From Holosporales bacterium (GTDB lineage Bacteria > Pseudomonadota > Alphaproteobacteria > BNTO01), in assembly GCA_031270515.1 (NCBI GenBank), contig JAISXM010000017.1, positions 1 to 46,792 of the forward strand: a stretch of DNA of 46,792 nt, read 5' to 3'. This document shows, in pieces, positions 17,472 through 44,073 of this stretch. The notes below the pieces were generated by a model that worked only from the letters and a program-made list of their open reading frames with translations, ran no database searches and was not told the origin of the DNA. Position numbers and translations under genes: made by a program. Position 1 is the stretch's first letter; every line of letters begins with the position of its first letter.

Positions 17472-20400
17472 ATGTTCCTAGCCAAGCGCCATTTTGTTTC
17501 CCGATTTGCAGCAGTCGCCGCGTTGTGGCTAGGTTGCGACGACATTGTGCATGCGACGCTTGATTATACAACGATAGAAACTGGTATTGGAACGGTTGAT
17601 ACAATTCAACAAATGAGCGCAAAGTGGGCCCCCGGGAATCAAAGAACTTTATATAACGGGACAGGCGCAGTTTGGATCGTCGGTTCAGGTGCTCAAACGT
17701 TATTGGCCTATTCAACTGGACAAAATGACATCCCTTCTCATGAAGAGACTTATATTAGCGGTTTTGGAAAGATTAAAAAGATTGTTAATATTATTAGTCA
17801 AATTAAAGCGGGTCAATCTTTTTGGGATGTAAGTAGTTGTGCGACATCGTTGGTAGATAAGCTAGAATCAAGCAGTGTTAATAAAGTCGATTGGCCAATA
17901 ACAGCACTCCTTGGACAGATGAGAAATAATTCAAATCAAATTCAAGGATTACTTGGAGCTCCTAGTGATATTAGTGCATCTATTACATATTTTAGTTGTT
18001 TGAATACAATTATTGAAGAACTGCACAAAGCAAGGATTAAAACTGGCGAGACCACCTTTGATGGCACTGCAGATGATGATGCGGCGACCTTGTTCGCGCT
18101 TACGCAAATTGGATCCAGGGGTTATTCCCCAACCTTAGCCGGGGCGATTGCCGGCATAACCGCCACTGGCCCAACGACCGCCACCACCGTCCTGAAAGGG
18201 ACCGCATGTTGGCGCACCATATGGGGCACTGAGTCAGATACAGCGTCGCACTCCGGCTCCATGATCTCCCAGCTGCTTGCGGCGGGGGTGGGTAGCACAA
18301 CTGGCGTAGGCGGAAAGTCACTACTCGAAAATTTCAAAGAAATAGCAGCGTCGTTTGAAATAGGCAAGTTCAACGGGAACGTGAAGATGAGTGATTTCTA
18401 TAAATACATAATCCCTACAACTCCTGCAGACTATATTTTATTAGATAGACTTTCGACAGATTCAAGCAATGAGTCTTCGAGGAGTAAAATAATAGAGGCA
18501 CGCCTTAACACTTTGTCAATCCAAGAATGCTTGTTGTTTATATTGTCAGAGGAAACCGCTCCGTCCGGAACCCAAATAATGAGCAATAGTATTGCAATTG
18601 GTAAAACAGATACCGTACTCAATCATCTTACCAACCGCATTAAAACGTGTTGTGAAGCAATGCTCGGTAAATTCAAGGTCGTATGTTGCGACAACGTGTA
18701 CAAATCCCTGCGCCAATTGGGCGATGATTTGTACGCGAACACTCAATTTCTGCAAACGTTTGCGCTGGACCCTTTTACGGCAATCAGGGCGACTGACGCT
18801 ATTGTTAGCAAACAGACGGAGCTCAGCAACGCCATAAGCGCATTCAACAGTATCAAAGAGGTTGACGCGCAAAATTGCGACGACTCAGAGATCGTTAGCA
18901 AAGTTGATGCATTAGATACGATAATTAAAGCAATCAATAATGCGTTCTTTAGTACGATTTCCAAAAATGAAGTTTTGACTTCGCCTCTTAACGCGGCGCT
19001 TACGGTTCCGGTCCTATCATACGAATATTGCGTTAGCGTGCATACAATAATTACGCAACATGTCCCACAATATTTGGATATGCTTTACAGTGCGATCAAT
19101 AATATTAACACTTGGATCAATGATATAGATATTACGGCGAGTGCGGCCGATGTCATTCACGATGGTTTAGGAACATTACGCACATTTTTGCAAGCTCTGC
19201 ACGGCGTGTTTCCGGGCAGCGCGATCGTATTTAAGTCTTTTTGCAAAACCGAATACGCAGACGCATCTGGTGACCTTGAAGTTCCACCCGTTGGTCCACT
19301 TATTCCGCAATGTCGACACATTACGAACAGCAGCGATGAAATATTAAGTATAAACACAAAAATCCCGCAAATAATGGAAAGTCTGACCACGGGAATAGGT
19401 TATATTGATGCCCTGCAAACTAAGTTGCTGCACATCATTGAGCAACAACGTCTTGCGACATCGCTGCGAATATTGGACGAAAGCGTGTTTCATTTATCAC
19501 AGTTAATTGGACAGGTGGATCCAAGCACGCTGGTATATAATTCGCTGTCTGTAACCGACGTTACGCAGTGCATCTACAATATTGTACACCAAGTAATAAT
19601 TCCACCCGCGTCCGCGTTTGATTATCCCAGCGCGATCCTGGAGCTAGCCACGGCTCTGAATACGCTACTCGGCAATCCACTCAGCGGATCGTACACGGAG
19701 CCGCTGTCGTTTGACGTTGACGGTTGCGAGCCATGCACAACCATCAACAGCGTATTGCGCAATGGTATCCCTGTGTATTTGACTCAAATATTGCAATCCA
19801 TATGCAGCATTAATGATTATATTCGCACTACCCCGCCCGAGGTTATTGCGTTTGATACTGAGCGCAGGAGGGAGAGTCTCGCGGAGTTGCAGGCCTTTCT
19901 TACGGATATTCAGCCCCTGTTTGACCTAAGCATCACCGCGAGTGCGTTCTGTGAAGAGGAAGCACAATGCCTCAATTTTAGTGTGGCCCCAATAAACGCA
20001 TCGATCCTCGCCATAAAGAACGCCATGTCGCTTGGCATACAGGACATTACCTTTGTCACTCCATTTGTCGACCACCTTGCAGAGTGCAGTGCAAACGACG
20101 ACGTTCACATTGAAATATTGGGACACGTGCATGCTATTGCAGAATGCTGGAACATTATATTTACTGACGAAAATACGATGGCTCTATTTGATACATGGGA
20201 CGGTGAACAAAATGTTATGGTTGGCGTCATTGGGAAGTTGACAAGCGCTCTGTCGGCGTATCCTCTAACGCTACCGGAACATTCTGGACATATATATGAC
20301 ATCGACAGCAGTTCGTTTAGTGCGTTCGTCGGGCTGTTAGTCGAAGCACAAGGATCGCTTAGCGTACTTGCTGGCAACTATGCTCTTCCAGACACCTGGC

Positions 20401-23400
20401 ACGCTCCGTCAAACACCGCAGATTTGTGGCGAGCTATCGTGGATGAGCTATCGCAAATAAGCGTAAACATTTCCAGCTGGGGCGTGCGTATAGCCAGCAT
20501 CCGCGATTGCGTAATTCCAGTCGTGGGGGAGGCCTTTTTGGGCCTTAATGTCGCGCTGAATGACGTGCTAGCTTGCTTTGGTACGGAAGAAGATGGGCAA
20601 ATAACAATCAACCGCAGCATTTGTATACATCACAACGTTCCGCCCGCTACGTGGCCGCTGAATCAGCTGACGTCATTGGCGGCGCTGTTTGGGGACCCGG
20701 ACCCGTGTGGGGATCCTATGCATGACTGTGGTAGCGCGGCAACGAACTTGGTTGCAATTTACAATGCTCTGTCTACAGATGTTACGCCAGCCTACGTATA
20801 CAGCAAGTTCGATGAAATAATGGCGTGTTTAGATGGCATGATAACTACCCACAATCTTGGAAAACTTGCATCTGATGTATTATATGAACTAACAGGTGAA
20901 TTGAACGCACCTTCGCTATCCGCCACAGAGCTGCGTTATGGATATGCTGCATGTATGGTGAATGCGCTCGATAAAATTGTGCGCATGATTCCGTGTATAC
21001 ACAACCAATTGCAACATATAATAATGACGAAAGATGCTGATTTGTTTAGGATAGAATCGTTTAATACATTAATCGAAAAAGTCCGCGCTGTATTAGCAAT
21101 ATTAGAAGTGCGACCTTGCCCAACTGCAAGCATTGTAGAATGGAGATTTCCGCGCATTGAAAAAAAGTGGGAGGATTTTTTAGAAGCACTGCTTTTGTTA
21201 AAGGACGATATCCTGCTGAACGCATTCGTCAATGATGAGCTTGCACCAGTAGCAGGCTTGCTATCGTCCATCAACGGAAGGATCATCGTCATGGCCACCA
21301 ATGCGGTGCAGCTTGATGGGTTGACCGCGTTGTTTCATGCGATTGCATCACGCCAGCTCGCGGATACGACTGTGGAGCAAGAGCTAACGTTTTGGAATAC
21401 CCAATTGGAAACTTACGTTTCGGATGCAGGTGCAGTATTTGAGCCCATCCCCGCGTACACAACGGACGTCCGCAGCCTAGTTGAATTGCTTAACGGGTTC
21501 GTATGCCGCATGGTCGGCTCCATCTTCACGTATGCACGCCAGCTCACTGCGTCCCCTGCGTCTGTCGACAACGAGCACTATCGTGCTGACCTAATCCAGC
21601 ATCTGAACACAGTTATTAATGTGCTGCCACATTGCAAGGCGATGTTGCACAAACTGATTGATCGGTTCAAGTTGCTGAATGCACTGCATGCAGAAGGGGC
21701 AATTGACGAGCTTCATTACAACTTGCAACAGTACATGGACGCGCTTTTAGTGCCTCCAACGTGCATTGCATCCGTAAACAATGCGGTGTACTCCATCCAG
21801 CGAGTGATTGGGGCGTTTATTGACGGCAACCCTGTGGCCTTTCCTGCTATTTCGGTGTTCCCAGGGGCGCCAGAGGGATGCACGGTGATGGATTCACTGC
21901 TGCAAATGTCAAGCAACATAGAGGAGCAGGACGCGCCAACGCTGCTGCCTGCGACAATTCAACGCACATTGGAGATGTTTGCAAAGCTGCCGGAAGTGAT
22001 TTTTGATTTGCGCCTTACGTTTGGGGATGCTCCAGATTGGCTGGAGGACCTGAAACAATTTCAGTTTGACGCATTCAGGTTGCTGCGCAATATGCGCACC
22101 TCGGATGTGGCGGCGCTGTTTTGTGGATATGCATTGTATGACGACGCAATCAAAGTCATCGAAATGTATCCGCTCGAGCAACTGCACTTGACGATAAACG
22201 CAGCGATCTCGGATTACGAGAAGGCCATACATAAATGTGCGCTCTTGGACAATGTTCGCCAAACTGCACAGGCGGCGTCGACTTTGCATCAGAAGCTTGC
22301 GCTGTTGCCTCTGGCGGAAATATTAGAGCCTCCGACGACGCTTGATTCTATATTGGTGCAGGTTGAACAATGTATTGCCGCTGAACTGACGCTTGAATAC
22401 GCGCAGCAACCTGATGATATATTTTCTTATTCAGATGTAATACTCAAAATTCTCAATGAATTCTTTTTTCCTACATTTAGTGATACTGCTTATGAGGCCG
22501 CTCCTTCGTTACAGCAAATATTAGATGACGCCGCCGCATACATATTAAATATAGCCAAGTGGTTTCGTTCCTTGGCCAACCACAGCGACTGGTCGACCGT
22601 GAAGTACCACCTCCAGTTGAGCTCGCAATTGCGGACGCTGGCCCAGCTATTGCAAGGGCCTATCGCCAGCATTCCAGACGGCGCCCTCTGTAACAGGTGC
22701 AAAGTAGATGTTGGCGCTTTCTTCAATGGATACGTCCCCATGATCGGCGACATACGAGAGTCGTGCTTGGTGATTGCGGAGCGTTGCGCTGTGTGCAATG
22801 CGTGCAAGCCGCTTGTTGCGGCGGCGTCCGGGCTGGCAGCACTGGTGGAAAGCCTGGAAGCTTACAGTGCTGACTTTCCGCAGTACGACAAAATCAACAG
22901 CGTCATGAGCATCATGAGCGAGCTGAGCGCGCTACCGGAAACGCAAATGAATCTGTCGTGCGAAAACAGCGTGGGGTTCATCACGACGCTGTGCTCCAAA
23001 ATCGAGGCGATGTGCGCGGCCCTGGATCTCACGCCAAAGGTGCCGGACTTAGTGACCGGGGAGCACTACGATTGCAGCATCCTCGAGGCGATGTGCGTTC
23101 GTATGCTTAGCAGCGTCACAAAAATCGCAGACAAAATGACGGACGTCTTGTACAACGCTCAGGCGCCTCCACATGGCAACTGGGTGGCGATGGCGGAGTT
23201 GCTTCAGGGAACGTCGACTTTGGTCAGCGCAATAAAAACGGTGTTTTACAACATCCAGTATTGTGGCCTGTGTAATAGTGTGGCGTTTTCGTACATATTC
23301 GCAGATATAGAGACACAAATGGATCGCCTCGTAGATTATGTGTCACAGCTGAATGAGCAATGGAATACATATGCGGATTACAATGACAACAAACAAATAT

Positions 23401-29400: not shown

Positions 29401-32400
29401 TCGCTGCGTATTTTAGCGCCCCCATACACAGCCCCACCCAGGACGTTGCGCTCACAGGGCTGGCGGCGCTATTGGCGTCTGGGCTCGGGTTGCCGGAGGT
29501 GCCCAGCGAAGAATACATGCGAATTGTTCCATTCAACGAATACGCAAAGAAACAATACGTGAATCAAATAATTGATCATGTTGTTACTATTCCGCGTGTA
29601 TTTGCCCAATGGCGAGCAATATTACAGGGAATGACATTGTCGAAAAATGATTATGCCGTACGCGTGGTCAGTACGTGCATCAATCGCATTGCAAAATTTG
29701 CAGAATTGTTCGAGGGCGCAACGCCAGCAAACTCCTTCCTGCACGACACGGAAGGCGTACTGTTCGTTCGTCAACATATAAGGGTGACACTTATTTCTGT
29801 CGTGGAGGAGTTGGTCGCGCTCAGGAATATATATTTGAACCATGCCGCAGAAAAGGTGGTGATGGAAGAACTGGATGTAACTCAGAATATTCTTGGCGTA
29901 TTGCCTGATGTATTAAATTTAGTATTAGCCAGAATAGAGCAGAACACATCAGACATCAATTCGCACACAGAAAGCATTGTCGCTCGCTTAATCCAACTGC
30001 CGCCTCAAAGCTTGGAGCACTTGCAGCCAGCGTTGGCGCGCCTTGGGGACGCATGGACGGCGGCGACACAACAGCGGCCGGTGGCGTCGTTCGATGACGT
30101 GTGTGGCGGCATTTCAGATATAAACAAATGCCTGTACGCGTACGTTACAAGCTTGCTGAACGCGCAGGGGCAAAACGCATCCATCGCGCACGACAGCACG
30201 AGTCCGGTTGGGGGGCGACTGACGAAGTTCAAGGATGAGCTTGAGCATTTCTTGCAGGCGCTGAACCGCGTTTCCGTCGCTGTAAAAAATCTGGAGTTTG
30301 ATGAAGAGTACGTCGCCTCGCTTGTGAATGAAAGCAGCCCAATCCTCCTGATCCTTGCTGCGAAAGAGCCAATCATGGCGCTGGCACAGACGTTGCGCGG
30401 TCAACTGGCATATGAGAGCAATGAATGGGCATATATACTTGAGTCTTTGGATGGAATGTTTGCCAAGCTCTTGGTTACTATTACAAGCATCAGGGATACA
30501 ATTGCGAATCAGGGCCCAGTCAGAGTATTGTGCACATATAAAGATGTCCTGAACCGCGTGCATTTACTCTCCCAGCAAATAGATAAGATCGTGGGCAACA
30601 GCACCATCGAAGACGCAGAGGCGTTCTTCCGCCAGCTTGTCACGCAAATTGCGGATGCGGCGGAGTTGGCTCCGGTGACTCATGCCGCGCAGTTGGATGC
30701 GATCATTGCGCTGGTCAATAGCGCTTTTTCCGTGACAGTATCTGATGCGTTTATTGAGCCAAACAGGTTGGATGTTGGGTCCATACCTGAGATACAGTAC
30801 AAGACGGAAATAAAGGTCGAGCGCATTCTTACGCAGTGCGATCGCCTCACGCATTTGTGGCTGCAAACTCCGTATGTCCTTAAGCCTGAGTTGATCAATA
30901 ATGTGTCACTTGTACTGGAAAAGGTAAAAGCGTCGCCCAGCAGCTGGAGTAAAGTCGCGAGCATCTTGGAGCGCTTCCTCGGCGAGCTTCGTGTTCCGAC
31001 ATTTTGCCTTGGGCGCAATGCGGTGCTTTGTCAAATTGAAGCAAGCACGGCGAATATGGTTCATGCACTGAATAGTGTTGCGTTGAATATGCATGTTCTT
31101 GCAGAACAAAAGTACGGGGAGCTTCTTGCTGTATTATCCGAATTGTCACCAAATATACACGGTATAAATGATGCGTATAAAACGCTTGTACACGCAGACT
31201 ATTTTGATGTGCAGTATATCAACACGTTGACACAGTTGTCTGTAATAATTGCAAATATTCAGAATAACGTAAATGCTATTGCTACAATATTTAACTGCGT
31301 GCCTAAAGTCGCCCCCCCTTTGACTCCAGCTTTGTGCGAGCAAACAGACCTCCTCATTTCGCGCATTGGGACAAATGTATGCAATGCGCAGAGGGAGCTA
31401 TTCTCGCTGATCGACAGCATCGTTCCTGAGGTAGGGCAAGTCATGCCACTTCGCCAAGAGGTAATCACGGCAATGGCGGACACGTTCGCGCCAATATTCG
31501 CCGAGTTGTGCGATGCCCTGCAATACGTAGCCGCGCATGTTTCTGGCATGACGAACTGTGTCCTCCACAACAGCGTATATCGCCGCGCGTTTGTGACGGA
31601 GCTGGTGCGGCAAGGGGTGATCATGGAGGCGTACCCCGGTAAGTTGGAGCGGCGCTTGCGGCAGTTCAAGGATTCCTACGTGGGCAGCGTCGTTCATGAG
31701 CTGCGTGGAAACGTGGAAAATCTCATGATTTTGGTGCGTGGGTTGGCTCAGGTTGACTGGGATAACAGCAAGCTGGCCTTGGTGAATGCTCGCTTTGAGC
31801 AGCTGCGCGCAAATCTGTACAGCGATGTGAATGCGTGGCTCCACCGCACGGACGACGGCCAGTGGCATGAGTTCGTTAGCCAATTGAAGTTTGGGGACTA
31901 TGTAACGATTCTGCAAAATATTTACTCTGATGTCGGTGCACCTGCTCCTGTGTTGCCAAATCTGCTGCAAACGGTGTTTGGGGAGCGTCAAATCCGTGAA
32001 GATATTACGGCGATATCTCAATTCATGGATACGGTGGTTGGTGTGATTGCGACGGACATTTACCCTGATTTTAGACAAAAACGCTTATATAACCCCGCGC
32101 TTGCTCAGGTGTTTGACGCTGTAATCGCGTTTAGCGCTGTTGCACGTGTGGATTCGTCTGATCCAATTCAGCAGCAATTGTTGGAGTGCTTGTGCCCTGC
32201 TATTGCGCGTGAAGGCTTGAGTCCCATTGTCGCGCGTGAATCGCTGAGTCCTGCGCTTTCGCTTGAAGTCCTGCGCCATTTGGAGTTCATATTGAGCCAC
32301 AATACGTGCTGCGAACCACATACAAGCAAGATGAGCAGCATATTGGATACGTATGCCGCAATTAAGCTCAATTTGCACAGAATGAGTGCTTCCACATTTG

Positions 32401-35400
32401 GTGTGCGCTCCCAAGACGTATTTTTAAAGAGTGGGCCAATCGGCGCCATGGCAGGCAAGCTGGTGGCTATGGTCACCACGCTGGGGACAACATATGCGCA
32501 GACGCAGAACTTGTTGCTTCAGTTGGAAATCTCATCCAACGGCTTGTGCATCAGTTCGCTTGATGAAGGATTGACGCAAGCGTTGGCACATTTCGCGGAC
32601 CAAATGGACGCACTGCAAGCGCACACCGCGAACATGGCGTCGCTGCACTGCGACATTAATGACTTGCAGCTTGGTGAGGCACTGGGCACGGAATTCATGC
32701 AGTTCGACACGAATATTCGTCAGCTAAATTTGTACTACGACGACAACATCGCAACGGCATGGGGCAACTTGAACCAGGCCTTGGCGCAGCAGCACTCGGC
32801 CATGCTTGCTGTAAAGGCAATGCTCACACATAACGAGATTTGTTTCTTGAGGGGGGATGTTCTCGTTGCGCAGTTCAATGAGTTTGATGACTTCCGTGCG
32901 TACATCGCAAGCTCAATCCGCGCGCTGGCTGTGTATAAGGAGTGTGCTCTCGCCCGCAGTGGTATGCATATGTATAGGATTTATCAGCAACTAGCTCCGG
33001 TTGTAATGATTTCGGATATTCTATTTAGGAATGCAACAATCAAAGATGCGCTGATTTTCATAAATAAATTGACGGTTAGTATAAATAATATCGCAGCAGT
33101 GTTGGAGGGAATTCACGACTCCAAAGTTTACGAGGTCTCATATTTGCACGGATTATTAAATCTGGAATATATTGTTTGCGACATAACTGCGGATTTATCC
33201 ACATATATAGCGAAATACGGCGTCGTTATTTCTGCAACACTGGAGGAGAACCTAACGTTCCAATCGAGCGATTTCGCCTTATATTTAGGCCAAATTATCG
33301 ACACAATGGGCACGTCAGGCAGCATATTACTTGCGCTGAAGGATTGGCGCACAAGCATAGCGGCCGAGGACGGAAGCAACCACAACGAGCGCTGCTACAC
33401 GGATATTTTTGCTGCGTTGTGTGCAAAGGTTGAAGTATTGCGAACCATAATAAGTGGTGTAAACGCGAACTTTGCCCCTGTATACGCGCAAACATTCGTG
33501 TTCCCGCCAACGGAAGCGCCCGCTCCATTCAGCCAACCCGTGCTGCAGGCGCTATTTGCACAATTGGCGCAAAACCTCACGTTTGTGAAAAGCGAATTTA
33601 CCGGCCTGCACACGCTTGTGACCAATCCAACGTGCTGCTACAAGCGCTTACAACAGCAAGCATTAATTGCGGCCACCTTCGACAAGCTACGTCGTGCCGT
33701 ACTTGGAGCGGCGCGCAACCTTGTGCAAGATCCGTTTGTATGCGAGCAGGATTTAGCCCCATGGATATTGCGGACCCAAGAGGGAACGTTGGCGCTGCAG
33801 ACGCTGGCGTCTTCGTTAACGAGCATTGCCGTGGATGCGGAGCTTACTTGCCAAGCTAGCCTGATCAGCGACAAAACAGGTCAAGTGATTATTCCTGCGT
33901 TTCAGGCTATGGTGCTTGCCGTAAGCAACATGCTGGCAACAATCGCTCCGCTTGCACCAGAAGACGCGCCGCTTGCGCTCCCGGATTTTGCCAACATATG
34001 TGCCGCGATTATCTCAGGCAATGTGCAGCTGTCATCCATTGCTGCGGGAATGAAGCTTGCTATGCAGGAACTTAAGGTGCAATTAGCTCAAATTGATATA
34101 TTCGCGTACAGCCAAGCCTTTGTGGACGCGCTGAACGAGTTCCTGCTGGCCCTGCGCGCGGCTCGTGTGCAGCTTGGGGAGTTTTGCACGTCGTTTGAGG
34201 GCGAGAACTGTTACGTATGCAATGCCGTCAGCTATACATCGCTGTTGGGGTGTGTCATGGAGAGCTTGCGCGAGTTCGAAGACGTGATTCACTTGATTGA
34301 AGGCAACAGCAGTAAGCGCTATTCACGAACACTGCATGAGCTTGTTACTGCGGTGGAACTGTTTGGACAATACTCGCATGCATTTTTTACGCAAGACTTT
34401 GATGACTTTGATCCGCAAAGAATAGAGATACTTGAGCAAGCATTAAATCTTAACGCGCGCGTATTGACGCAAATAGGCGACAGCAACGGCAATTACACGG
34501 GGATCAAAAATATCATTCACGCCGCCACAGAAGAGTTTGCCGACATTTTATATGTCGCGGATGTGGCGCTGCCTGTCCTAATGCAGGAGGCTCCGGTTTA
34601 TGGGGCAAGCTTGATCGCGCAAGACAGAGTGCGGCTGATGTATGTGTTAACGCGCTTTATAACCCTGGTTGAGCATATGCCCACAGGGCGCGGTCACTTT
34701 GTTGTCCGGTCCACGTGGCAGCGTTTGGCGAATGTGGTTGAGTCGTTCGTCGCAAAGGTCAGGGGCTTCCATACGTCGGACCTTTCCCTTGCGCATGAAT
34801 TGGCCGATCAAGCAAGCGAGCTTGCCACCGCAGAGCAGGCGTTCCTTGAGAAGGTGCGTCAGGCAACGTACTGTGAACCTATCGATGCTGTGATATTTGC
34901 GTTTGTTAATTTCGTGGATGATCTGAACTACGCGTTTAGTACAAGTAGCGCTACATTCATAAACAACCTTTCTGCGCAGGATAGTGCAACGTTTGCGGCG
35001 CGTCTTGATGATGTAACAACTAATATTGCGTCGTTAATTACTGTGATTGCGGATATTACGACTGCTCCAGTAAATGCGTCCCCGTATGTTTGCTCTATTA
35101 ATATGGAGCACGTAACGCAATTGTCGCAACAATTGGACGCCACGAAAGGCGCAGTGTTCAATGTCGTCCAAGTCATGAATCCCTATTTGACGATGCCACT
35201 TCACGCAGAGCCCGCTCATTATCCCGACAAAGTGGTGCTCATTCGGCGCATTGTCGAAATATTAAAATTGTTGCAGAACTCCATGAACGCTGCGTGGCAG
35301 AGTGCCGCCAATTGTCAGGTCCGGGATTACCACAAAGGGACCATTGATTCGGCTAAATTGCTGAATGCAAAGTTAAATGCGCTGGTGCCATGTATTCCGT

Positions 35401-38400
35401 CGCTATTTAATCTTGTGAGCGTGTGCCAGTTTTGTGAGCGGACGGAGATTGCGTTAACGTTGAGCGAAATTCCCGCAATTGTGCAACAGATCCCGAATGA
35501 TATAAATGGGGCGATCCTTTATTTGGAACAAATGTGCTGTTCGCGTCTTGCTTTTCAGACGTGTAATGTGTACGACAAATCCTACGTTATATCTAATGCA
35601 ATGAACGCACTGGCGGGCGAATCTTTGGGGGGAATTGTTGAATTCCTTTGTAATGAGGACATCCAGGCGAATTCATCCGCCCTTATAGAGCTGCTGACGT
35701 CAAATCTGCCGGATAAAAACTTTAACTTAACGCAGTGGGTCAAACTTGCGCCATTGTTTGCTGTTCCTGGAAATGACCACTGTTCCGCCAGAGAGATCGA
35801 ATATTTCTTGGATCAGTGGGATAATGTTCTTGTCCAAATAATTGCAATGTTTCCCACACAATATACAACAGGACCAAATTCTCCTCTGGAGAGGCCGCTT
35901 GTGTATACTTGCGATATATTGCCGAATGTCGTGAATTTGTGCATGGATTCTGTATCGAGTTTGTCGGCTGCGCTTGGCATCCTCATAAACAAAGTGGAAT
36001 ATCATGTATTCGTTTACCCGAAAGTGCTGAATTTGTGTCGATTACTGGCGGAGTTCGTTGGGGCACTTAATTCTCTTTCGTCTATTAACTTGGCGCAGAC
36101 AACTGATGTATTTTGCACAAAGTGTCAGAGCGAAAGCGTTTTTATAAATGCACTGCGTAAAAAGAATGCGTCTGATGTATTAGTGTTCGATGAACTCAGA
36201 ATGCACGTAGAAACATTAATAAAAATATTATCAGATTATTGCGATAACGAAGCCGTTCAAGCCTTTGATTATTTCAGGTTTAACATTTCTTTGCTGAATA
36301 ATATACTTATAAATTTAAGTAGAGAACTTGTTCCTTTTTGGAATAGCAATCTTGTAGATGACTCGAAATACTACGAAATCTTGAATATCAACGACCTTTA
36401 CTCCCGTATGTCCAGCACAGACTACGGCTTAAACGAGTTGCTTCGCTTGATCGTAGCAAATGCGCCAACTGCAAGTACAACATATTGCCAAGTTGGCAAT
36501 ATCGCCCATTTGGCGACGTCGTTTGCCCATAAGTTCGCGGAGGTTGTTGCGCTTTTTGCTGAATTTACCAAGGACTTTAGATATGCAGAGCAGAAGAATG
36601 AATATCAAGAGCTTGCGCCGTCTAATGATAAGTTAGCGCTTGCCAGAGTGCTTAGCGACGTCAAAACTGAGATTGCAAACGTCTTTAGTTCCCTCGAACA
36701 GATATCTACGCAAATCAATTCAAATCAATTGACTACTAATATTAAAATCGCGTCTGGTGTACTTGAACTAAGTAATAACCTTAATGTGCAAATGTCACAT
36801 TTCGAAGCGCTATATCATGCGTGGGGCAACTTCCCTTGTCCGAAATGGAACGATTGTAAAGCATGCGAGATGCAGCTTAGCTTTTGTGACAATTGCGATA
36901 AGGTTCCGCCTCCAGGGTGTTTGTGTAATTTTATAAATGGAACACCTGTGCGTAAGCAAATATGGGATATAAGGTCCAAAATAAAAATGATGGCTGACTT
37001 TTTAGATAGATTGAGCCAAGTTATATCTCCAAACTGTTGCGTTGAGCCATTTAAACCATTATTTCAATTGCCGGATTCTATGCTGATAGTGCAGTGTAAC
37101 GTGTTGGACTTTTTTAGGTGGGCAGACATACTCAATAGTCCGAATTACCTTGTCGAATTCGTAGAATGTCTAAGCACAAATATTTCTTTCGTAGGCGAAG
37201 CATTACACGCAATACTTCAAAAGCGTGAAGAGACTCGTGATAATCCTAATAATTGTCGGATGAAATTGTTCTCCGATGAGCTAGTCCTATTACGTGACAA
37301 TACTTTGAAGCTTGTAAATGGAACAACCGAGATTATTGAGCTGCACCAAATTCCACAGTCATTTAGGCAAAGGTGGGACGATTTGAAACCGACTTGTACC
37401 GAGATACCGTCTATGCTGCCGATTTTTGGGAAGTGTGTTATTCAAATAACGGCGTACTTTGACAAATTCACAGAGCTGGTGCGTACTGCGGAGGAGATTG
37501 ACGCACATAAAGAAGCTCTAATAAACAAGTTGGCGCTCGACCCACTGCAGGTGCTGTACCAACAACTTATAGAGATAGAAGGTTTTGTATCGTCGTTAGT
37601 ATTGGTGGGGGATCAACGGCAAATTTGCGCAAACTGCAACAGAGATGTGATGAACGAAAACTTTACGTTGCTAAAAGAAAACCTTCACCTTTGGGCTGAC
37701 GCAGTACTCAATTTGAAGAATGCGTTTGTGTCAAAGTATTGCTGTGAGGGCACGGACGAGTCGTTTGCTAATGTGGAGTATATCACCAATATTATAAAAT
37801 TAAACGTGGACCAGTTGGCAACATATCGGTTCTCTGTCTATGAGATTTATTATGATATATATGCGGATGAAATAAAGGGGGTTGAGGGCGCCATTGATGT
37901 TGTGCGCGAATATTTGGTTAAATATTTGTCGATTCGCCAATCACTTCCAAAATCAACAGCCGTCGACTTCTGTTTTATGGCGCATATTGGCCCAACGTTT
38001 GTTGACTTGGGGAACATATTGCAGGGGAACGTGCTTGGTGCGATAAGCGCGCTGTTTAACCGCTTGGGGGTGACGTTTATATCGCCAGATCCCGGGATTA
38101 CATTTATCCACGGCACCTGCAGTTCGTTTGGCATACGGCTGGAGTCCGTCGCCAGCGCATTCGACGCCATAGCGACAAACATGCTTAGCATATTCAGCGA
38201 GTTGAGCGACGTCGCGCTGCATCGTTCGCCGGCTCACACCACGGAGGGATACAGCGCCGTTCAAGGGGTGGTGCGCGCGTTGGCGGATATGTCTGTGGTT
38301 ATGTTCGGGATATATACTAACGCAGAGCACAAGAAAATATGTGAAAACTGTAATCATGCCAACGTGTTGTCCCATATTTATAACGGACAGGCAACGCTTG

Positions 38401-40196
38401 CGCGAGTTGTCGGAAGTATACATGCGTATCTAGTAAATCATCGGCACATAAGCCTTGCGGTGGCTCTGAACAGATTCTTGGATGCGTATGGCAAGCTTAC
38501 GTCGACGTTTGATTCGCTGCACTTGGTGGGCGATATTAATCGCTACATAAACGACGCCAATACGGGGCACGCGGGGCAATTGCTATCCATTGTTTATGGC
38601 TGGATCCGGAGTCTTACCAAATTAACCGCGGTTATTCCTGAAATTAGAGGGCTGAAGGACAATTTTGCCCAGCAGTATGCGTTTATTCGCGAGTTGGATG
38701 AGACTAGCGCTCTGGTTAACGAAAGCGCCATTCGTACGCAAGCATTTTTGTCTGACGTGCTGGGGCAAGAGTTTGCGTTTTCCACGCTTGGCTCGATTGA
38801 GTTTTCTTTAGAACGGTATGTGTCGTCCGCGATTTCCATGCTTGATACGTATTCCGCAAACGCAGCCGAGGCGATTCAGTGGCTTTGTGAACACTGCGCA
38901 TACTTTAACATCACCGCAAACGATGCCAGCACATTTGCCGCGATCGCTAGGTTTGCGGATGTTGCTGTCGTCGTTAAGCAGCTGGAGGTTTATTGTGATG
39001 CGGCGTTGTGCCCGATTTCTTCTGGGACGAGGTTTTGGGCGGCGACCGTGCAGTTGAGGGATACGCTTGCGCCGAAAGAAAGAGGGATCATTGCGAATCT
39101 CAACGACATGACATGCTTGTTCATGATTGCGGCACAAAATTTGCGTTTTTCGCCTGAACACATTGATGATGTGGCAAGTTATAGTGAGGACGTGAACCAA
39201 TTTTTTGTGCAGCTATCCGCTTTTGCTGAGTGGATGCGGCAGGTTAAAGGGGGCGACGATTTGTTGGCGAGCACAGCGACATCCCCTGTGCTTGGGGTGC
39301 AGCAAATGACGCGGTGCATCGCGCAGCACATGGGGTATAACGAGGATGTGGTCAATGTGGTGCATGCAAATAGCGTGTCTCAATCGGTGATTCAATTGGC
39401 GGCGTCTGTTCATGCGTTTGGAAGGGATACTTTTGGGTTTATAAGTAAAGCGGCGGGGCTTCATGTGCAACACAGAATCAAAGTCGATTTGCATAACGTT
39501 GTTGTAGTGCCTACGTCTGTATTAGTAATAAAAAAGAACTTAACGCTGATACTTGATGCATATCGCGCGGGCACACTTCCGGAGGCGTGGCGGCTGGCGG
39601 CTGGCGGAGGCGTGGGCGCTGGCGCGAGTGGAGGAGCGGATGCTGGAGCTGGCGGAGGTGTGGGCGCTGGCGCGAGTGTGCTGAATGACGAAGGACAGGC
39701 TGCGCTAATTGAGTGCGTCGACGGGTTGTATCAAACGTTTCAGAGCGTGTATGTCTTGTTGAAAAATGTAAACCGCAGAATCGATGTTGCGCTGTTACAG
39801 GATAGGTTTAATGCGCGAACTCATGACGGAAATGGGATTCCCGTCATTGAAAGGCTGTTTGCCACGGTGTACGACACAACAGTAGGAGTTCCTGTTATCG
39901 TTCAATCTACGCCAGCCACTGATGTACGAGAGGCGTCTGGTGCTGGGGCCGGGGGGGCCGGTGATGTAGGAGGGCCTGGTGGTGATGCAGGAGTACCTAG
40001 CGGTGATGCAGGGGTTGCAGGAGATGAGTCCGGTAATGCAGAAGGGCAGGGCGGACCGCAGAGTGCGTTATTGCTTACGCCGCATGTGGTTATATCGGCT
40101 CAAAGCAGCTCCGTTGTTTCAACAACGGGCGTATTGCTGGACAGAGCTGATGCACTGCATACTAGAATGACGGGAAAGAAATACCTCCGCACGTAA
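17472..40196 (+). CDS. Giant (7,574 aa) signal-peptide-bearing, helix-rich, cysteine-motif repeat protein of unknown function
   Basis: One uninterrupted 22,725-nt ATG-initiated ORF. The N-terminus MFLAKRHFVSRFAAVAALWLGCDDIVHA has n/h/c signal-peptide organisation (VHA cleavage site or a weak LWLGC lipobox). Composition is L/A/I/E/Q-rich and helix-type. I count 15 CxxC and 11 CC motifs. Gly/Ala/Asp low-complexity repeats sit near the C-terminus. All antisense and overlapping ORFs are short. Confidence 0.9.
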   Translation: MFLAKRHFVSRFAAVAALWLGCDDIVHATLDYTTIETGIGTVDTIQQMSAKWAPGNQRTLYNGTGAVWIVGSGAQTLLAYSTGQNDIPSHEETYISGFGKIKKIVNIISQIKAGQSFWDVSSCATSLVDKLESSSVNKVDWPITALLGQMRNNSNQIQGLLGAPSDISASITYFSCLNTIIEELHKARIKTGETTFDGTADDDAATLFALTQIGSRGYSPTLAGAIAGITATGPTTATTVLKGTACWRTIWGTESDTASHSGSMISQLLAAGVGSTTGVGGKSLLENFKEIAASFEIGKFNGNVKMSDFYKYIIPTTPADYILLDRLSTDSSNESSRSKIIEARLNTLSIQECLLFILSEETAPSGTQIMSNSIAIGKTDTVLNHLTNRIKTCCEAMLGKFKVVCCDNVYKSLRQLGDDLYANTQFLQTFALDPFTAIRATDAIVSKQTELSNAISAFNSIKEVDAQNCDDSEIVSKVDALDTIIKAINNAFFSTISKNEVLTSPLNAALTVPVLSYEYCVSVHTIITQHVPQYLDMLYSAINNINTWINDIDITASAADVIHDGLGTLRTFLQALHGVFPGSAIVFKSFCKTEYADASGDLEVPPVGPLIPQCRHITNSSDEILSINTKIPQIMESLTTGIGYIDALQTKLLHIIEQQRLATSLRILDESVFHLSQLIGQVDPSTLVYNSLSVTDVTQCIYNIVHQVIIPPASAFDYPSAILELATALNTLLGNPLSGSYTEPLSFDVDGCEPCTTINSVLRNGIPVYLTQILQSICSINDYIRTTPPEVIAFDTERRRESLAELQAFLTDIQPLFDLSITASAFCEEEAQCLNFSVAPINASILAIKNAMSLGIQDITFVTPFVDHLAECSANDDVHIEILGHVHAIAECWNIIFTDENTMALFDTWDGEQNVMVGVIGKLTSALSAYPLTLPEHSGHIYDIDSSSFSAFVGLLVEAQGSLSVLAGNYALPDTWHAPSNTADLWRAIVDELSQISVNISSWGVRIASIRDCVIPVVGEAFLGLNVALNDVLACFGTEEDGQITINRSICIHHNVPPATWPLNQLTSLAALFGDPDPCGDPMHDCGSAATNLVAIYNALSTDVTPAYVYSKFDEIMACLDGMITTHNLGKLASDVLYELTGELNAPSLSATELRYGYAACMVNALDKIVRMIPCIHNQLQHIIMTKDADLFRIESFNTLIEKVRAVLAILEVRPCPTASIVEWRFPRIEKKWEDFLEALLLLKDDILLNAFVNDELAPVAGLLSSINGRIIVMATNAVQLDGLTALFHAIASRQLADTTVEQELTFWNTQLETYVSDAGAVFEPIPAYTTDVRSLVELLNGFVCRMVGSIFTYARQLTASPASVDNEHYRADLIQHLNTVINVLPHCKAMLHKLIDRFKLLNALHAEGAIDELHYNLQQYMDALLVPPTCIASVNNAVYSIQRVIGAFIDGNPVAFPAISVFPGAPEGCTVMDSLLQMSSNIEEQDAPTLLPATIQRTLEMFAKLPEVIFDLRLTFGDAPDWLEDLKQFQFDAFRLLRNMRTSDVAALFCGYALYDDAIKVIEMYPLEQLHLTINAAISDYEKAIHKCALLDNVRQTAQAASTLHQKLALLPLAEILEPPTTLDSILVQVEQCIAAELTLEYAQQPDDIFSYSDVILKILNEFFFPTFSDTAYEAAPSLQQILDDAAAYILNIAKWFRSLANHSDWSTVKYHLQLSSQLRTLAQLLQGPIASIPDGALCNRCKVDVGAFFNGYVPMIGDIRESCLVIAERCAVCNACKPLVAAASGLAALVESLEAYSADFPQYDKINSVMSIMSELSALPETQMNLSCENSVGFITTLCSKIEAMCAALDLTPKVPDLVTGEHYDCSILEAMCVRMLSSVTKIADKMTDVLYNAQAPPHGNWVAMAELLQGTSTLVSAIKTVFYNIQYCGLCNSVAFSYIFADIETQMDRLVDYVSQLNEQWNTYADYNDNKQILTKLFNFFELQNTIDGYINSAASVSEMCSRVESWGQFLREFESLEKIKEEYDFFTLLPYEWLSPQFLHSTRTFLANYINEITYVATKNIHTLRFVHDYLNTNVTNISQETFALVRGIKNVKSNWVRFIAAISLPQIVTPNSILLTLPTSFMQALEEVLAIFDEIVRDLSEKPSICKDRAFHLFDINQVVRAICDKTSIADICSNDTTDRVTGIGALLTAIADATAADPAHPELPFDADCSGVEVSLSNIVYGLELIDGNVRHASKETDWSSLSPDNIPDYQAFGSALHEMLAAFPLNVHMCDLCNVTANEIYIARCRELVRSITINIVYICDQLSKPSYTSDARELAVVSEFCERMAAFFESKIEDPGTRDVDAFRSLVDVLQTSSVLSWGQGDFALLEADIASIQANASINLSVVTLPRDRRLEWYHLSLLRSFNRIYASLVNAGLSLNNHLDLIHTGARFSAFAEELHSVLKQAWGQRPENSQEVSSRNVWPLLNIIAHIAEEGRRWFYVAPVQTSEALEDAWPRIERLARNLKALDNHLDGGWGAIADVPGIFDVQDENAVGVLDEVVNNIAAALVASSDIKDVATHSIAALFTRYNFHLGEIVASLQSIALKVEADYSHSISENIRNYLLSYAPLTIPAFDATNTEQVLISSETVALLALFRDATLRIIDALNGKCCAPESLYYSELADEFYKVRHFFRTLTAEQLTSDMPEVAAICAYIQSLPSAEYVEHQVQPELLLHIRALASHLCPDAIDLPKRYTRHNERRKQLELIRIQECIDGINRKLYALIIDVKQRVFTYTPDAITMLRAFQHFRGVMDRALPHALSHNDPTDLFSQPLDTLQERLDALVDALLNYRCCVEYANNILALLNAVEGAQVGIADAVHNNIEHGIAFDALFAQLVHAFESVVEHTRSFDTLFDIVGDLQGIVPVGYTRAYSIPQCEAWPFALHKSAEAVQNMSMIFDEVLTYWGNTPPAYSQALYENIVKLQGFILNVRNNLLQTLDQPPAHFAVCRTCVAPIARLKTDLCSRIHAQTLATLASVLFQRQYAEVRHRQFRIAEALQALENAVASCVELPLMAVNIDAVSYNITNTTVANNWFCALLANLRTVSQEYCNESFDDNTFIASIHAFSSNLLQEYINIGGTALPAPIPLVEQYATPDSVIFERLVEYVTNTCNRVYLLFKSYFEQPYSGNSTVRDAVIITARFCQDTAALLATPSFAGHYSLPKDVHFKFAAQLQLLAKHLNEALADYSPKCCENNRASLVQRTFAQFAEEVALLTDALVTQSAQDGDAFTCSANITSLSTSLGSFITQLESVVTHLGVAPAPEVLCYDASAQIMQIVPKLNLVVGAAHDISSTVDASILPAQLPPAWGADMGPTEENLVALARVLSALRDGPRSLNQSLVRLREYFARTGEVAYQALHVPNLKNINTVLTSMVAQLQLLQANMVKACQSYQYSLIIVDIAQEISKYPPIIEEIIESIKLRFWAPYSHAIHRLRTYIRAQTHAMALLRDIGATNEALTGADKDDKYTLLRQYLTAIKGQLQTFALITIDDLESVHNEAEISHVLDQFVAFADGLGGTSTSTQLAQIGGIFGRSLPPLAPSVIPATNVFQYINDNINSILEELLAQAVSLGIAQNVNTGLGCITTQGLLTTIAAYFEASGPIARNIVNMLDLYSVLSDTFYGGERMPIHNVSAQVSNTFTDIYEKIIQLSDLFNIERCGFLFNTYSLGIHPQLQRLSSILQAIDVVAEFNWALLDEPNGDEGTSVLELIEGMTMSLYNLSEHLPAHYYYMADKLRYCSAGIVNVYVEQVYADLNRVNNLLAGQHSALQALPLTTDNSACGDTLNGARLDNLSVTNNIATFLTRLVEFVRSSGPRIPLNNIQKLISLQNALMRLCDVLRDVNGVIQEMCTFCENEAASRTFISGMEACVTIMYKNLAELSDTLAAFCCSVDVENALISIAHGVKALADYITGQSFDAAKPDALLDFVRIMNLLEAPIAAYFSAPIHSPTQDVALTGLAALLASGLGLPEVPSEEYMRIVPFNEYAKKQYVNQIIDHVVTIPRVFAQWRAILQGMTLSKNDYAVRVVSTCINRIAKFAELFEGATPANSFLHDTEGVLFVRQHIRVTLISVVEELVALRNIYLNHAAEKVVMEELDVTQNILGVLPDVLNLVLARIEQNTSDINSHTESIVARLIQLPPQSLEHLQPALARLGDAWTAATQQRPVASFDDVCGGISDINKCLYAYVTSLLNAQGQNASIAHDSTSPVGGRLTKFKDELEHFLQALNRVSVAVKNLEFDEEYVASLVNESSPILLILAAKEPIMALAQTLRGQLAYESNEWAYILESLDGMFAKLLVTITSIRDTIANQGPVRVLCTYKDVLNRVHLLSQQIDKIVGNSTIEDAEAFFRQLVTQIADAAELAPVTHAAQLDAIIALVNSAFSVTVSDAFIEPNRLDVGSIPEIQYKTEIKVERILTQCDRLTHLWLQTPYVLKPELINNVSLVLEKVKASPSSWSKVASILERFLGELRVPTFCLGRNAVLCQIEASTANMVHALNSVALNMHVLAEQKYGELLAVLSELSPNIHGINDAYKTLVHADYFDVQYINTLTQLSVIIANIQNNVNAIATIFNCVPKVAPPLTPALCEQTDLLISRIGTNVCNAQRELFSLIDSIVPEVGQVMPLRQEVITAMADTFAPIFAELCDALQYVAAHVSGMTNCVLHNSVYRRAFVTELVRQGVIMEAYPGKLERRLRQFKDSYVGSVVHELRGNVENLMILVRGLAQVDWDNSKLALVNARFEQLRANLYSDVNAWLHRTDDGQWHEFVSQLKFGDYVTILQNIYSDVGAPAPVLPNLLQTVFGERQIREDITAISQFMDTVVGVIATDIYPDFRQKRLYNPALAQVFDAVIAFSAVARVDSSDPIQQQLLECLCPAIAREGLSPIVARESLSPALSLEVLRHLEFILSHNTCCEPHTSKMSSILDTYAAIKLNLHRMSASTFGVRSQDVFLKSGPIGAMAGKLVAMVTTLGTTYAQTQNLLLQLEISSNGLCISSLDEGLTQALAHFADQMDALQAHTANMASLHCDINDLQLGEALGTEFMQFDTNIRQLNLYYDDNIATAWGNLNQALAQQHSAMLAVKAMLTHNEICFLRGDVLVAQFNEFDDFRAYIASSIRALAVYKECALARSGMHMYRIYQQLAPVVMISDILFRNATIKDALIFINKLTVSINNIAAVLEGIHDSKVYEVSYLHGLLNLEYIVCDITADLSTYIAKYGVVISATLEENLTFQSSDFALYLGQIIDTMGTSGSILLALKDWRTSIAAEDGSNHNERCYTDIFAALCAKVEVLRTIISGVNANFAPVYAQTFVFPPTEAPAPFSQPVLQALFAQLAQNLTFVKSEFTGLHTLVTNPTCCYKRLQQQALIAATFDKLRRAVLGAARNLVQDPFVCEQDLAPWILRTQEGTLALQTLASSLTSIAVDAELTCQASLISDKTGQVIIPAFQAMVLAVSNMLATIAPLAPEDAPLALPDFANICAAIISGNVQLSSIAAGMKLAMQELKVQLAQIDIFAYSQAFVDALNEFLLALRAARVQLGEFCTSFEGENCYVCNAVSYTSLLGCVMESLREFEDVIHLIEGNSSKRYSRTLHELVTAVELFGQYSHAFFTQDFDDFDPQRIEILEQALNLNARVLTQIGDSNGNYTGIKNIIHAATEEFADILYVADVALPVLMQEAPVYGASLIAQDRVRLMYVLTRFITLVEHMPTGRGHFVVRSTWQRLANVVESFVAKVRGFHTSDLSLAHELADQASELATAEQAFLEKVRQATYCEPIDAVIFAFVNFVDDLNYAFSTSSATFINNLSAQDSATFAARLDDVTTNIASLITVIADITTAPVNASPYVCSINMEHVTQLSQQLDATKGAVFNVVQVMNPYLTMPLHAEPAHYPDKVVLIRRIVEILKLLQNSMNAAWQSAANCQVRDYHKGTIDSAKLLNAKLNALVPCIPSLFNLVSVCQFCERTEIALTLSEIPAIVQQIPNDINGAILYLEQMCCSRLAFQTCNVYDKSYVISNAMNALAGESLGGIVEFLCNEDIQANSSALIELLTSNLPDKNFNLTQWVKLAPLFAVPGNDHCSAREIEYFLDQWDNVLVQIIAMFPTQYTTGPNSPLERPLVYTCDILPNVVNLCMDSVSSLSAALGILINKVEYHVFVYPKVLNLCRLLAEFVGALNSLSSINLAQTTDVFCTKCQSESVFINALRKKNASDVLVFDELRMHVETLIKILSDYCDNEAVQAFDYFRFNISLLNNILINLSRELVPFWNSNLVDDSKYYEILNINDLYSRMSSTDYGLNELLRLIVANAPTASTTYCQVGNIAHLATSFAHKFAEVVALFAEFTKDFRYAEQKNEYQELAPSNDKLALARVLSDVKTEIANVFSSLEQISTQINSNQLTTNIKIASGVLELSNNLNVQMSHFEALYHAWGNFPCPKWNDCKACEMQLSFCDNCDKVPPPGCLCNFINGTPVRKQIWDIRSKIKMMADFLDRLSQVISPNCCVEPFKPLFQLPDSMLIVQCNVLDFFRWADILNSPNYLVEFVECLSTNISFVGEALHAILQKREETRDNPNNCRMKLFSDELVLLRDNTLKLVNGTTEIIELHQIPQSFRQRWDDLKPTCTEIPSMLPIFGKCVIQITAYFDKFTELVRTAEEIDAHKEALINKLALDPLQVLYQQLIEIEGFVSSLVLVGDQRQICANCNRDVMNENFTLLKENLHLWADAVLNLKNAFVSKYCCEGTDESFANVEYITNIIKLNVDQLATYRFSVYEIYYDIYADEIKGVEGAIDVVREYLVKYLSIRQSLPKSTAVDFCFMAHIGPTFVDLGNILQGNVLGAISALFNRLGVTFISPDPGITFIHGTCSSFGIRLESVASAFDAIATNMLSIFSELSDVALHRSPAHTTEGYSAVQGVVRALADMSVVMFGIYTNAEHKKICENCNHANVLSHIYNGQATLARVVGSIHAYLVNHRHISLAVALNRFLDAYGKLTSTFDSLHLVGDINRYINDANTGHAGQLLSIVYGWIRSLTKLTAVIPEIRGLKDNFAQQYAFIRELDETSALVNESAIRTQAFLSDVLGQEFAFSTLGSIEFSLERYVSSAISMLDTYSANAAEAIQWLCEHCAYFNITANDASTFAAIARFADVAVVVKQLEVYCDAALCPISSGTRFWAATVQLRDTLAPKERGIIANLNDMTCLFMIAAQNLRFSPEHIDDVASYSEDVNQFFVQLSAFAEWMRQVKGGDDLLASTATSPVLGVQQMTRCIAQHMGYNEDVVNVVHANSVSQSVIQLAASVHAFGRDTFGFISKAAGLHVQHRIKVDLHNVVVVPTSVLVIKKNLTLILDAYRAGTLPEAWRLAAGGGVGAGASGGADAGAGGGVGAGASVLNDEGQAALIECVDGLYQTFQSVYVLLKNVNRRIDVALLQDRFNARTHDGNGIPVIERLFATVYDTTVGVPVIVQSTPATDVREASGAGAGGAGDVGGPGGDAGVPSGDAGVAGDESGNAEGQGGPQSALLLTPHVVISAQSSSVVSTTGVLLDRADALHTRMTGKKYLRT
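32203..32255 (+). repeat. 27-bp tandem duplication (AREGLSPIV / ARESLSPAL) in the giant ORF
   Basis: gcgcgtgaaggcttgagtccc and gcgcgtgaatcgctgagtcct lie one 27-nt period apart. Confidence 0.7.
39603..39678 (+). repeat. 48-bp Gly/Ala-rich repeat (about 1.6 units) near the C-terminus of the giant ORF
   Basis: ggcggagg(c/t)gtgggcgctggcgcgagtg occurs at 39603-39630 and 39651-39678. It encodes GGGVGAGASGGADAGA GGGVGAGAS. Confidence 0.85.
39960..40040 (+). repeat. 21-bp (7-aa) degenerate tandem repeat, GD(V/A)G-type
   Basis: ggtgatg(t/c)agg occurs at 39960, 39981 and 40002. It encodes GDVGGPG GDAGVPS GDAGVAG DESGNAE. A G7 run lies just upstream at 39951-39957. Confidence 0.8.
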
Positions 40197-41170: not shown

Positions 41171-41203
41171 TGCGCTTCGAAACGACGAACCAAACATCTT
41201 TTT
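41171..41203 (+). repeat. Conserved intergenic motif, copy A (TGCGCTYCGAAACGACGMAC...AAAC.TTTTT)
   Basis: tgcgcttcgaaacgacgaaccaaacatcttttt, in the divergent promoter region between the 203-aa (-) and 422-aa (+) genes. Confidence 0.7.
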
Positions 41204-44050: not shown

Positions 44051-44073
44051 GTGTTTGGGTCTATTTAAAAAAT

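Follow-up and report, generated by a model that had tools for sequence, protein, structure and literature searches.

A giant, predicted exported protein of Holosporales bacteria with conserved cysteines and a cryptic module of about 230 residues

Introduction

What does a single open reading frame (ORF) of 22.7 kb encode in a bacterium of the order Holosporales, and what might so large a product do for its host organism? The ORF lies on the forward strand of contig JAISXM010000017.1 (positions 1 to 46,792; GenBank assembly GCA_031270515.1), and this whole stretch, apparently one entire contig of 46,792 bp, is called the window below. We find that the giant gene is intact and real, and that its product belongs to a tiny, uncharacterised protein family of a few related, uncultured Holosporales bacteria. 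The family is marked by a predicted export signal, by strongly conserved cysteines and by a cryptic tandem module of about 230 residues.

The Holosporales, an order of Alphaproteobacteria, live as obligate symbionts, in most cases of protists, and a 2025 review of the order offers only the type VI secretion system (T6SS) for host interaction and makes no mention of such a giant protein (PMC11909080). Among bacterial proteins of more than 5,000 residues, non-ribosomal peptide synthetases and polyketide synthases (NRPS/PKS) predominate, together with surface proteins whose domains are known (PMC11573180). Measured against the complete 1.33-Mb genome of a relative (CP165730.1), the giant gene would take up 1.7% of the chromosome, where a sequence-only reading had estimated about 2% for a reduced genome. 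Many giant 'hypothetical' proteins exist in metagenome-assembled genomes (MAGs), and the function of this one remains predicted only.

The open frame is a coding gene

The giant ORF (17472..40196, + strand) begins with ATG, comprises 7,574 codons plus stop and is closed by the only stop in its frame, exactly where an earlier sequence-only reading of the window had placed a single 22.7-kb gene. Over the same span the remaining five frames hold 199-453 stops each, and the longest ORF among them, which that reading had correctly put at 226 residues, lies at 31398..32078 on the minus strand. Because the other frames are interrupted so often, an open frame of 7,574 codons at a guanine-plus-cytosine (GC) content of about 49% cannot have arisen by chance. 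We further note that in every 1.5-kb slice of the gene GC is higher at the first than at the second codon position (GC1 > GC2) and the purine fraction at position 1 is about 0.6. The coding signal is thus continuous, and the whole gene therefore looks coding.

Inside the gene, repetition at the DNA level is confined to a 48-nt unit within a low-complexity tract near the C-terminus, which makes assembly collapse unlikely. Homologues of 7,197-7,329 residues, intact and collinear, are present in three further MAGs that were assembled independently. At two homologue loci for which 14.4 kb of DNA was read, an uninterrupted suffix of 4,790-4,817 codons of the deposited protein was found. Within the giant gene, GC falls from about 0.50 to 0.40-0.42 at window positions 35000-38000. 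This dip is not evidence of a chimera, since identity to the homologues is unchanged across the low-GC stretch at 35-38 kb.

A small family in Holosporales

The sequence-only reading took the protein for an orphan. In the strict sense that view did not hold: an exhaustive HMMER scan of 1.84 billion representative sequences, with residues 601-1800 (a 1,200-residue tile) as query, returned five proteins, namely the query and four others (E 1e-68 to 1e-112). All four relatives come from Holosporales MAGs and are named 'hypothetical protein'; three are 7,197-7,329 residues long and one is a fragment of 3,825 residues. For the window protein itself (P0083), NCBI nr and JGI/IMG already contain an identical entry. 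The other members of this five-cluster family are P0084/P0088 (including MDR0631182.1), P0085 (in JGI/IMG only), P0086 (MDR1908151.1) and P0087/P0089 (including MDR2464494.1). The exhaustive scan returned no Holospora protein, and two metagenome scans yielded no additional members. A genome contig scan with a single protein tile gave no homologue loci; with a profile of the family alignment, two were found in species-representative genomes, in isolates Pcl387_bin139 and Cd354_bin25. The GC content of these two loci is 34% and 47%, compared with 49% in the window. A termite gut as the source of the MAGs is no more than a lead: their k119_ contig names agree with the maximum k-mer of 119 in the assemblies of one paper, but the sample codes Cd354 and Pcl387 did not turn up in the papers searched.

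Four proteins (window P0083, P0088, P0085 and P0087) were aligned over their full length. Identity to the window protein is 28.6-32% across about 7,000 aligned residues (28.6-39% in the full-length alignment), and the proteins are collinear from end to end. Conservation is uniform in each 200-residue and 500-residue bin, the largest indel is 65 residues, and a mosaic pattern was not found in the alignment. Cysteine is invariant at 56% of its positions, tryptophan at 44% and phenylalanine at 26%, compared with 12% of all columns. Family membership is borne out by full-length collinearity, by an aligned signal peptide and by conserved terminal motifs.

Constant length, collinearity and uniform identity have been kept across genomes of 34-49% GC, and the alignment for this reason indicates that purifying selection has acted over the long term on the entire protein. 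The gene is likewise very likely important to its organisms, because it has stayed intact and of constant length despite this drift in GC and an identity of only about 30%.

An N-terminal signal for export

Residues 1-28 (17472..17555, +) have the layout of a signal peptide, with n-, h- and c-regions MFLAKRHFVSR, FAAVAALWLG and CDDIVHA. All four full-length members show, by inspection, a basic n-region, a hydrophobic core of 10-12 residues and a small-x-small site; where the window protein ends in VHA, the aligned N-termini of P0088, P0085 and P0087 end in MHS, VHS and VYS. Judged from these aligned sequences, the N-terminus is a signal of the type used by Sec and signal peptidase I (SPase I), and the Sec signal of the sequence-only reading is upheld.

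The weak LWLGC lipobox that the same reading had offered as an option fares worse. P0088 lacks any equivalent of its cysteine (residue 22), and the cysteines of P0085 and P0087 are unaligned with it. With the lipobox cysteine not conserved and the small-x-small site conserved instead, we rejected a lipoprotein, and cleavage by SPase I after VHA is the better prediction. A substrate of the twin-arginine translocation (Tat) pathway was also rejected, as the n-regions show only KR or a single R and lack the motif S/T-R-R-x-F-L-K. The mature product would have a mass of about 831 kDa and an isoelectric point of 4.9. It is rich in L, A, V, I and S, which agrees with the L/A/I part of the composition given earlier; the enrichment in E and Q given with it is not notable.

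Past the signal peptide no transmembrane-like segment was found, the nearest approach being one weakly hydrophobic segment that contains KK. Sorting signals (the C-terminal domain of type IX secretion, PEP-CTERM, GlyGly-CTERM and LPXTG) were absent from the Pfam and NCBIfam matches at E <= 1.

Conserved cysteines mark a cryptic tandem module

The body of the protein had seemed featureless from sequence alone, yet a tandem module is hidden in it and its cysteines are strongly conserved. No other residue of the family is conserved as well as cysteine: 95 of the 170 cysteines are invariant in the four proteins and 114 are kept in at least three of them. A recurring arrangement, CxxC-(~36)-CC-(~76)-C-(~46)-C, can be traced from about residue 350 to residue 7180.

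The module is clearest near the C-terminus, where five tandem copies occupy residues 5965-7118 (35364..38825, +), in the low-GC part of the gene (0.40-0.46). Their CxxC motifs stand at residues 5985, 6215, 6462/6472, 6719 and 6957, a spacing of 230-247 residues, and are orthologous in position across the four full-length proteins. The third of these modules carries a cysteine-cluster insert at residues 6456-6485 (36837..36926, +), CPKWNDCKACEMQLSFCDNCDKVPPPGCLC, that is kept in all four proteins. A further copy lies close to the N-terminus at residues 377-559 (18600..19148, +), as found with an iterated hidden Markov model (HMM); profile-profile comparison places it at residues 405-552 with a probability of 82%. 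Alignment and profile evidence together show these five C-terminal modules and one N-proximal module. We also observed that the GC dip inside the giant gene falls on these five C-terminal copies, the best preserved of all, in which N and K are more frequent.

Between these two ends the copies are far more diverged, and a BLAST self-comparison of the giant protein reveals almost no internal repeat. HMMs of single units, each built from the four orthologues, nevertheless match other units in register and near full length at 9-15 bits, against a maximum of 2-6 bits for shuffled and reversed sequences. In an HH-suite comparison of the unit profile with 260-residue tiles of the family alignment, nine non-seed tiles beat the maximum of 57 reversed-tile nulls. 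The highest-scoring tile is the N-proximal one, followed by residues 3675-3880, 3430-3614, 5361-5548 and 2790-2963. Consecutive unit starts are implied at about 3169/3398/3632 and 5320/5550, which again lie about 230 residues apart. Real scores differ from null scores with p = 3e-6 (Mann-Whitney), a value to be read with the overlap of the tiles in mind, as they are not independent. These comparisons lend statistical support to an array of probably about 30 highly diverged modules of about 230 residues, spanning residues ~340-7120 (18489..38831, +), in which the number of central modules is our estimate.

None of the 16 CxxC motifs in the protein is followed by H. A multihaem c-type cytochrome, which would show CxxCH, was accordingly rejected (0/16).

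Known domains and predicted structure

Searches of the whole giant protein against Pfam and NCBIfam (E <= 1) gave nothing significant, nor did Pfam searches of the homologues or sequence and profile searches of the PDB. This agrees with the sequence-only reading, which had recognised no enzymatic, RTX, Ig-like, ankyrin, PATR or beta-barrel signature. The negative for PATR is informative, because the same scan detects PATR repeats in a neighbouring giant ORF (ORF1, described below). An autotransporter or type V secretion system (T5SS) passenger was rejected on these grounds, with PATR, beta-helix, TPS and C-terminal beta-barrel all absent from the Pfam and NCBIfam results. Similarly, an RTX adhesin of the type I secretion system (T1SS) was set aside, as RTX, Ig-like and cadherin repeats are lacking and a signal-peptide-like N-terminus is present.

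AlphaFold2, run with the four-sequence family alignment on residues 29-1000 and 5965-6936, predicts for both segments 64-72% helix in helices of about 25-35 residues and no beta domain. The helix-like character read from the sequence is thus reproduced as an all-alpha prediction, at moderate confidence. A Foldseek comparison of the two segments with the PDB gave no match with E < 0.28 and query-normalised TM-scores of at most 0.13; the non-significant matches are generic long-helix proteins, among them alpha-actinin, talin and the dynein stalk. A spectrin-repeat protein, which would be built of three-helix repeats of 106 residues, was rejected, given no spectrin match in Pfam and Foldseek E >= 0.28, the latter a weak fold-level result as the models are of low confidence.

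A possible modular rod and its rivals

What might such a protein do? The reading that we favour, tentatively and with somewhat less than even confidence, is a Sec-exported, envelope-associated rod of helical-bundle modules that serves a structural purpose at the interface of symbiont and host. The giant polypeptide would be threaded unfolded through Sec into the periplasm, where about 30 helical-bundle modules, each of some six helices of about 30 residues, would fold one after another outside the cytoplasm. The conserved cysteines would lock the modules, either as disulfides or as metal sites. The product would be an elongated and stiff rod of modules that remains with the envelope, be it periplasmic or at the surface, and could act as a structural, spacing or attachment element between the symbiont and the eukaryotic host cell. 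If six-helix modules stack end to end, the rod might reach roughly 150-300 nm, a rough figure drawn by analogy with the 320 nm estimated for Ebh (PMC7587433).

Export is supported by the signal peptides that align in all four proteins. The PATR-bearing giant and the ORFs with signal-peptide-like N-termini nearby also speak for the favoured reading. A surface or host-interaction role is plausible. A bolder and more doubtful extension is that the family represents an undescribed megadalton 'skeletal' class of protist endosymbionts, in which about 30 six-helix modules stapled by cysteines form a rod of some 150-300 nm that serves as a ruler, spacer or tether of constant length, and that arose independently of Ebh/Embp and of spectrin-like rods.

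Several observations weigh against the proposed rod and the module array on which it is built. Support for about 30 modules through the centre of the protein is statistical and does not extend to each unit. The iterated repeat HMM remained stuck at six units, with its null risen to 11-17 bits, and a Fourier peak of the conserved cysteines at about 235 residues is significant pointwise but not family-wise. Cysteine counts per unit are not consistently even, a test for paired gain and loss of cysteines is marginal (p = 0.036), and in an anoxic intracellular niche the formation of disulfides in the giant protein is not a given. The AlphaFold2 models reach only a mean predicted local distance difference test (pLDDT) of 57-58 and a predicted TM-score (pTM) of 0.36-0.37, both moderate. 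At this confidence they do not establish whether the modules pack as a rod, a solenoid or a globule. Finally, no anchor or secretion partner was found, nor, on the downstream side of the two homologue loci, a conserved neighbour or operon partner.

The strongest rival, which we consider unlikely, is a secreted effector or scaffold of the host cell that passes through Sec, is then released across the outer membrane and uses its helical array to bind or mimic host cytoskeletal or membrane-tethering proteins of the spectrin, plakin or talin kind. The dependence of Holosporales on effectors for host interaction (PMC11909080) speaks for it, and so does the protein itself, which is acidic, soluble-like and predicted helical and has neither membrane anchor nor sorting signal. 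Its only structural neighbours, albeit non-significant, are the eukaryotic long-helix proteins named above, and the family evolves faster than a neighbouring housekeeping protein (about 30% against 50-61% identity). Such an effector would, however, have no known route for an 830-kDa Sec-exported protein across both the outer membrane and the host membrane. Cargo of the T6SS is cytoplasmic and lacks a signal peptide. Furthermore, about 114 conserved cysteines suit an oxidising, extracytoplasmic site better than the reducing host cytosol, unless they are metal-bound, and an effector caught in an arms race would not usually keep its length and collinearity so rigidly.

The cysteines allow a different proposal, to which we give a rather low probability: a periplasmic metal-binding or thiol-redox protein in which the CxxC...CC sites and the CxxC-x6-CxxC cluster bind a metal (Zn, Fe or Cu) or pass on electrons or thiols, with the helices as a mere carrier. 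The conserved placement of the CxxC motifs, often immediately ahead of a predicted helix, would fit this proposal, as would the rank of cysteine as the most conserved residue and the dense cluster at residues 6456-6485 kept in all four proteins. The odd cysteine counts in some units are also awkward for a model in which every cysteine is in a disulfide. Against it, there is no CxxCH haem motif, and the Pfam, NCBIfam and PDB searches gave no match to thioredoxin, rubredoxin, ferredoxin or any other metal domain. Without a twin-arginine motif, export with cofactors already bound is not expected, and at about 2% of residues, or some 4-6 per 230 residues, the cysteines would be better suited as structural staples.

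A little less probable again is that the protein falls into a known class (T5SS, T1SS or Rhs-like), as a giant adhesin or polymorphic toxin, and that divergence now hides its functional domain. The gene does lie near the PATR-repeat, autotransporter-like ORF1 and signal-peptide-like ORFs, and bacterial proteins above 5,000 residues other than NRPS/PKS are mostly surface or adhesion proteins (PMC11573180). However, neither the protein nor its homologues contain a PATR, TPS, beta-barrel, RTX, Ig-like, cadherin, Rhs/YD or toxin domain, and the prediction is all-alpha, not beta-rich. The C-terminus is conserved in the family, where a polymorphic toxin would vary. Substrates of the T1SS, moreover, do not carry an N-terminal signal peptide.

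That the ORF might not be a functional gene, but a chimera made in assembly or a frame that is decaying or open by chance, could be argued from its source in a short-read MAG contig, from expression that is as yet predicted only and from the GC dip, but the chance is negligible: one stop where other frames have hundreds, an unbroken codon-position signal, the lack of internal DNA repeats of a kind to confuse assembly, collinear proteins of 7,197-7,574 residues with uniform identity, low-GC stretch included, in four independent assemblies, and the strongest conservation at C, W, F and L, as is typical of a folded protein, effectively exclude it.

Comparison with known giant proteins

For the rod that we favour, the best functional analogy is offered by Ebh of Staphylococcus aureus and Embp of S. 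epidermidis, giants with an export signal whose alpha-helical bundle repeats form a rigid rod of about 320 nm (PMC7587433); the rod shape is shown there and proposed here. Like the window protein, they fall in the ~1-MDa class, carry an N-terminal export signal and are almost entirely alpha-helical (a prediction in our case), with tens of tandem helical-bundle modules of low identity. The window protein is unrelated to them in sequence and membership in this group was rejected, since FIVAR, GA and DUF1542 gave no Pfam match at E <= 1 in the window protein, and likewise in its homologues. Ebh and Embp have a YSIRK signal and a C-terminal transmembrane anchor, whereas the window protein has neither. 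Their repeats measure 125-170 residues, compared with modules of about 230 residues with conserved CxxC/CC cysteines here, and the copies in the window protein are, unlike theirs, so diverged that BLAST detects almost no repetition. The bacteria also differ: a Gram-positive coccus in one case and a Gram-negative endosymbiont in the other.

Spectrin, plakin and talin rods resemble the array proposed for the window protein, being long series of antiparallel helical bundles with very low identity between repeats. These rods are, however, cytoplasmic and poor in cysteine, whereas the window protein has a signal peptide and conserved cysteines. Giant size, an exported or surface location (probable in our case) and a sizeable portion of a small symbiont genome are shared with PATR passengers, RTX adhesins and the Giant1-5 proteins of Apilactobacillus. 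The latter make up 6% of a 1.5-Mb genome, and giant surface proteins of other symbionts are based on beta-solenoids (PMC12863079). In contrast to these beta-solenoid or Ig-like proteins, which Pfam recognises, the window protein is predicted to be all-alpha and contains no such domain. Within the same order, the 89-kDa and 63-kDa periplasmic invasion proteins of the infectious form of Holospora are what we take to be a precedent for Sec-exported proteins that are kept in the periplasm and serve host interaction. They are about ten times smaller than the window protein and are likened to it by description only.

If the all-alpha prediction is correct, the family would be a rare case of an all-alpha giant in a Gram-negative bacterium, bacterial giants being nearly always beta-rich repeat adhesins or NRPS/PKS (PMC11573180). 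The cysteine-marked module of about 230 residues is new, in that no domain database searched here matches it. Its definition provides an HMM handle for finding relatives and delimits tractable fragments of 230-700 residues.

Other regions of the protein

Outside the module array, an S/T/G-rich N-terminal region follows the signal peptide (residues 29-340; 17556..18491, +). The block that ranks second in conservation within the family lies here (residues 206-265), TLFALTQIGSRG...TATxVLK, of which TLFALTQIGSRG is found at nt 18087-18122; LDRL and LSIQEC motifs come next. The most conserved block of 60 residues, with a mean identity of 57%, is found at residues 5134-5193 (32871..33050, +) and contains YRIYQQL.

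The C-terminal region (residues 7119-7574; 38826..40193, +) holds two motifs conserved in the family, DG[IV]PV..RLF at nt 39825-39860 and [VI][IV]S.TG.L.D at nt 40113-40142. None of the conserved blocks at the two ends, which are the family's own, matches a known sorting signal. The only two low-complexity tracts of the protein are also found near the C-terminus, and both are Gly/Ala/Asp-rich insertions specific to the window protein. The first (residues 7369-7412; 39576..39707, +) bears the 48-nt DNA repeat, and the second spans residues 7478-7542 (39903..40097, +).

Genomic surroundings

The affiliation of the window is reflected in its AI-2E transporter (14060-15157), which is 50-61% identical to proteins named 'Holosporales bacterium'. 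A pgsA-like gene lies at 43350-43997. In CP165730.1 pgsA and the AI-2E gene are directly adjacent (9434-11098 of the locus read), whereas in the window the giant gene and several orphan ORFs separate them by 28 kb; this difference suggests a lineage-specific insertion or rearrangement as the setting of the giant gene. Three loci with AI-2E homologues, one of them that of CP165730.1, show no giant gene within flanks of up to 10 kb. Downstream of both homologous giant genes unrelated housekeeping genes are found, and synteny is not conserved.

Upstream, ORF1 (window 1-11487, +) is open at the left contig edge and encodes at least 3,828 residues with four PATR repeats; a C-terminal beta-barrel domain was not detected in it. 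Direct DNA repeats within ORF1 are spaced by about 1.15 kb and 2.6 kb. The family HMM shows ORF1 and the other neighbouring ORFs to be unrelated to the giant protein. Several of these neighbours match no family, some have signal-peptide-like N-termini, and exact-sequence look-ups of the flanking proteins found none on record. Transfer RNA genes and Rfam families are absent from the window.

Immediately upstream of the giant gene lies an orphan ORF of 660 residues (15218-17200, +), whose product is charged, looks disordered and has no signal peptide. It contains tandem coding repeats of 30 nt and 39 nt (DxxxLDPDA-type), and its TTG start is uncertain. At the Cd354_bin25 locus, an orphan ORF of 1,374 residues with a hydrophobic N-terminus (14587-18711, +) directly follows the homologous giant gene; it resembles none of the proteins encoded in the window and has no Pfam match.

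Two further repeats were noted towards the right end of the contig. A 36-nt inverted repeat (44025-44060 and 46587-46622, 89% complementary, with a related arm at 41178-41212) brackets the orphan ORFs 44141-45289 and 45293-46585 and could mark either a mobile cassette of small size or a terminator-like element that is shared. At the right end of the contig itself lies an intergenic direct repeat of 69 nt (46634-46702 and 46724-46792, 81% identity); part of it recurs in inverted orientation upstream of the AI-2E gene (13912-13939). This repeat may belong to a small dispersed element, and is possibly the reason why the assembly ended there.

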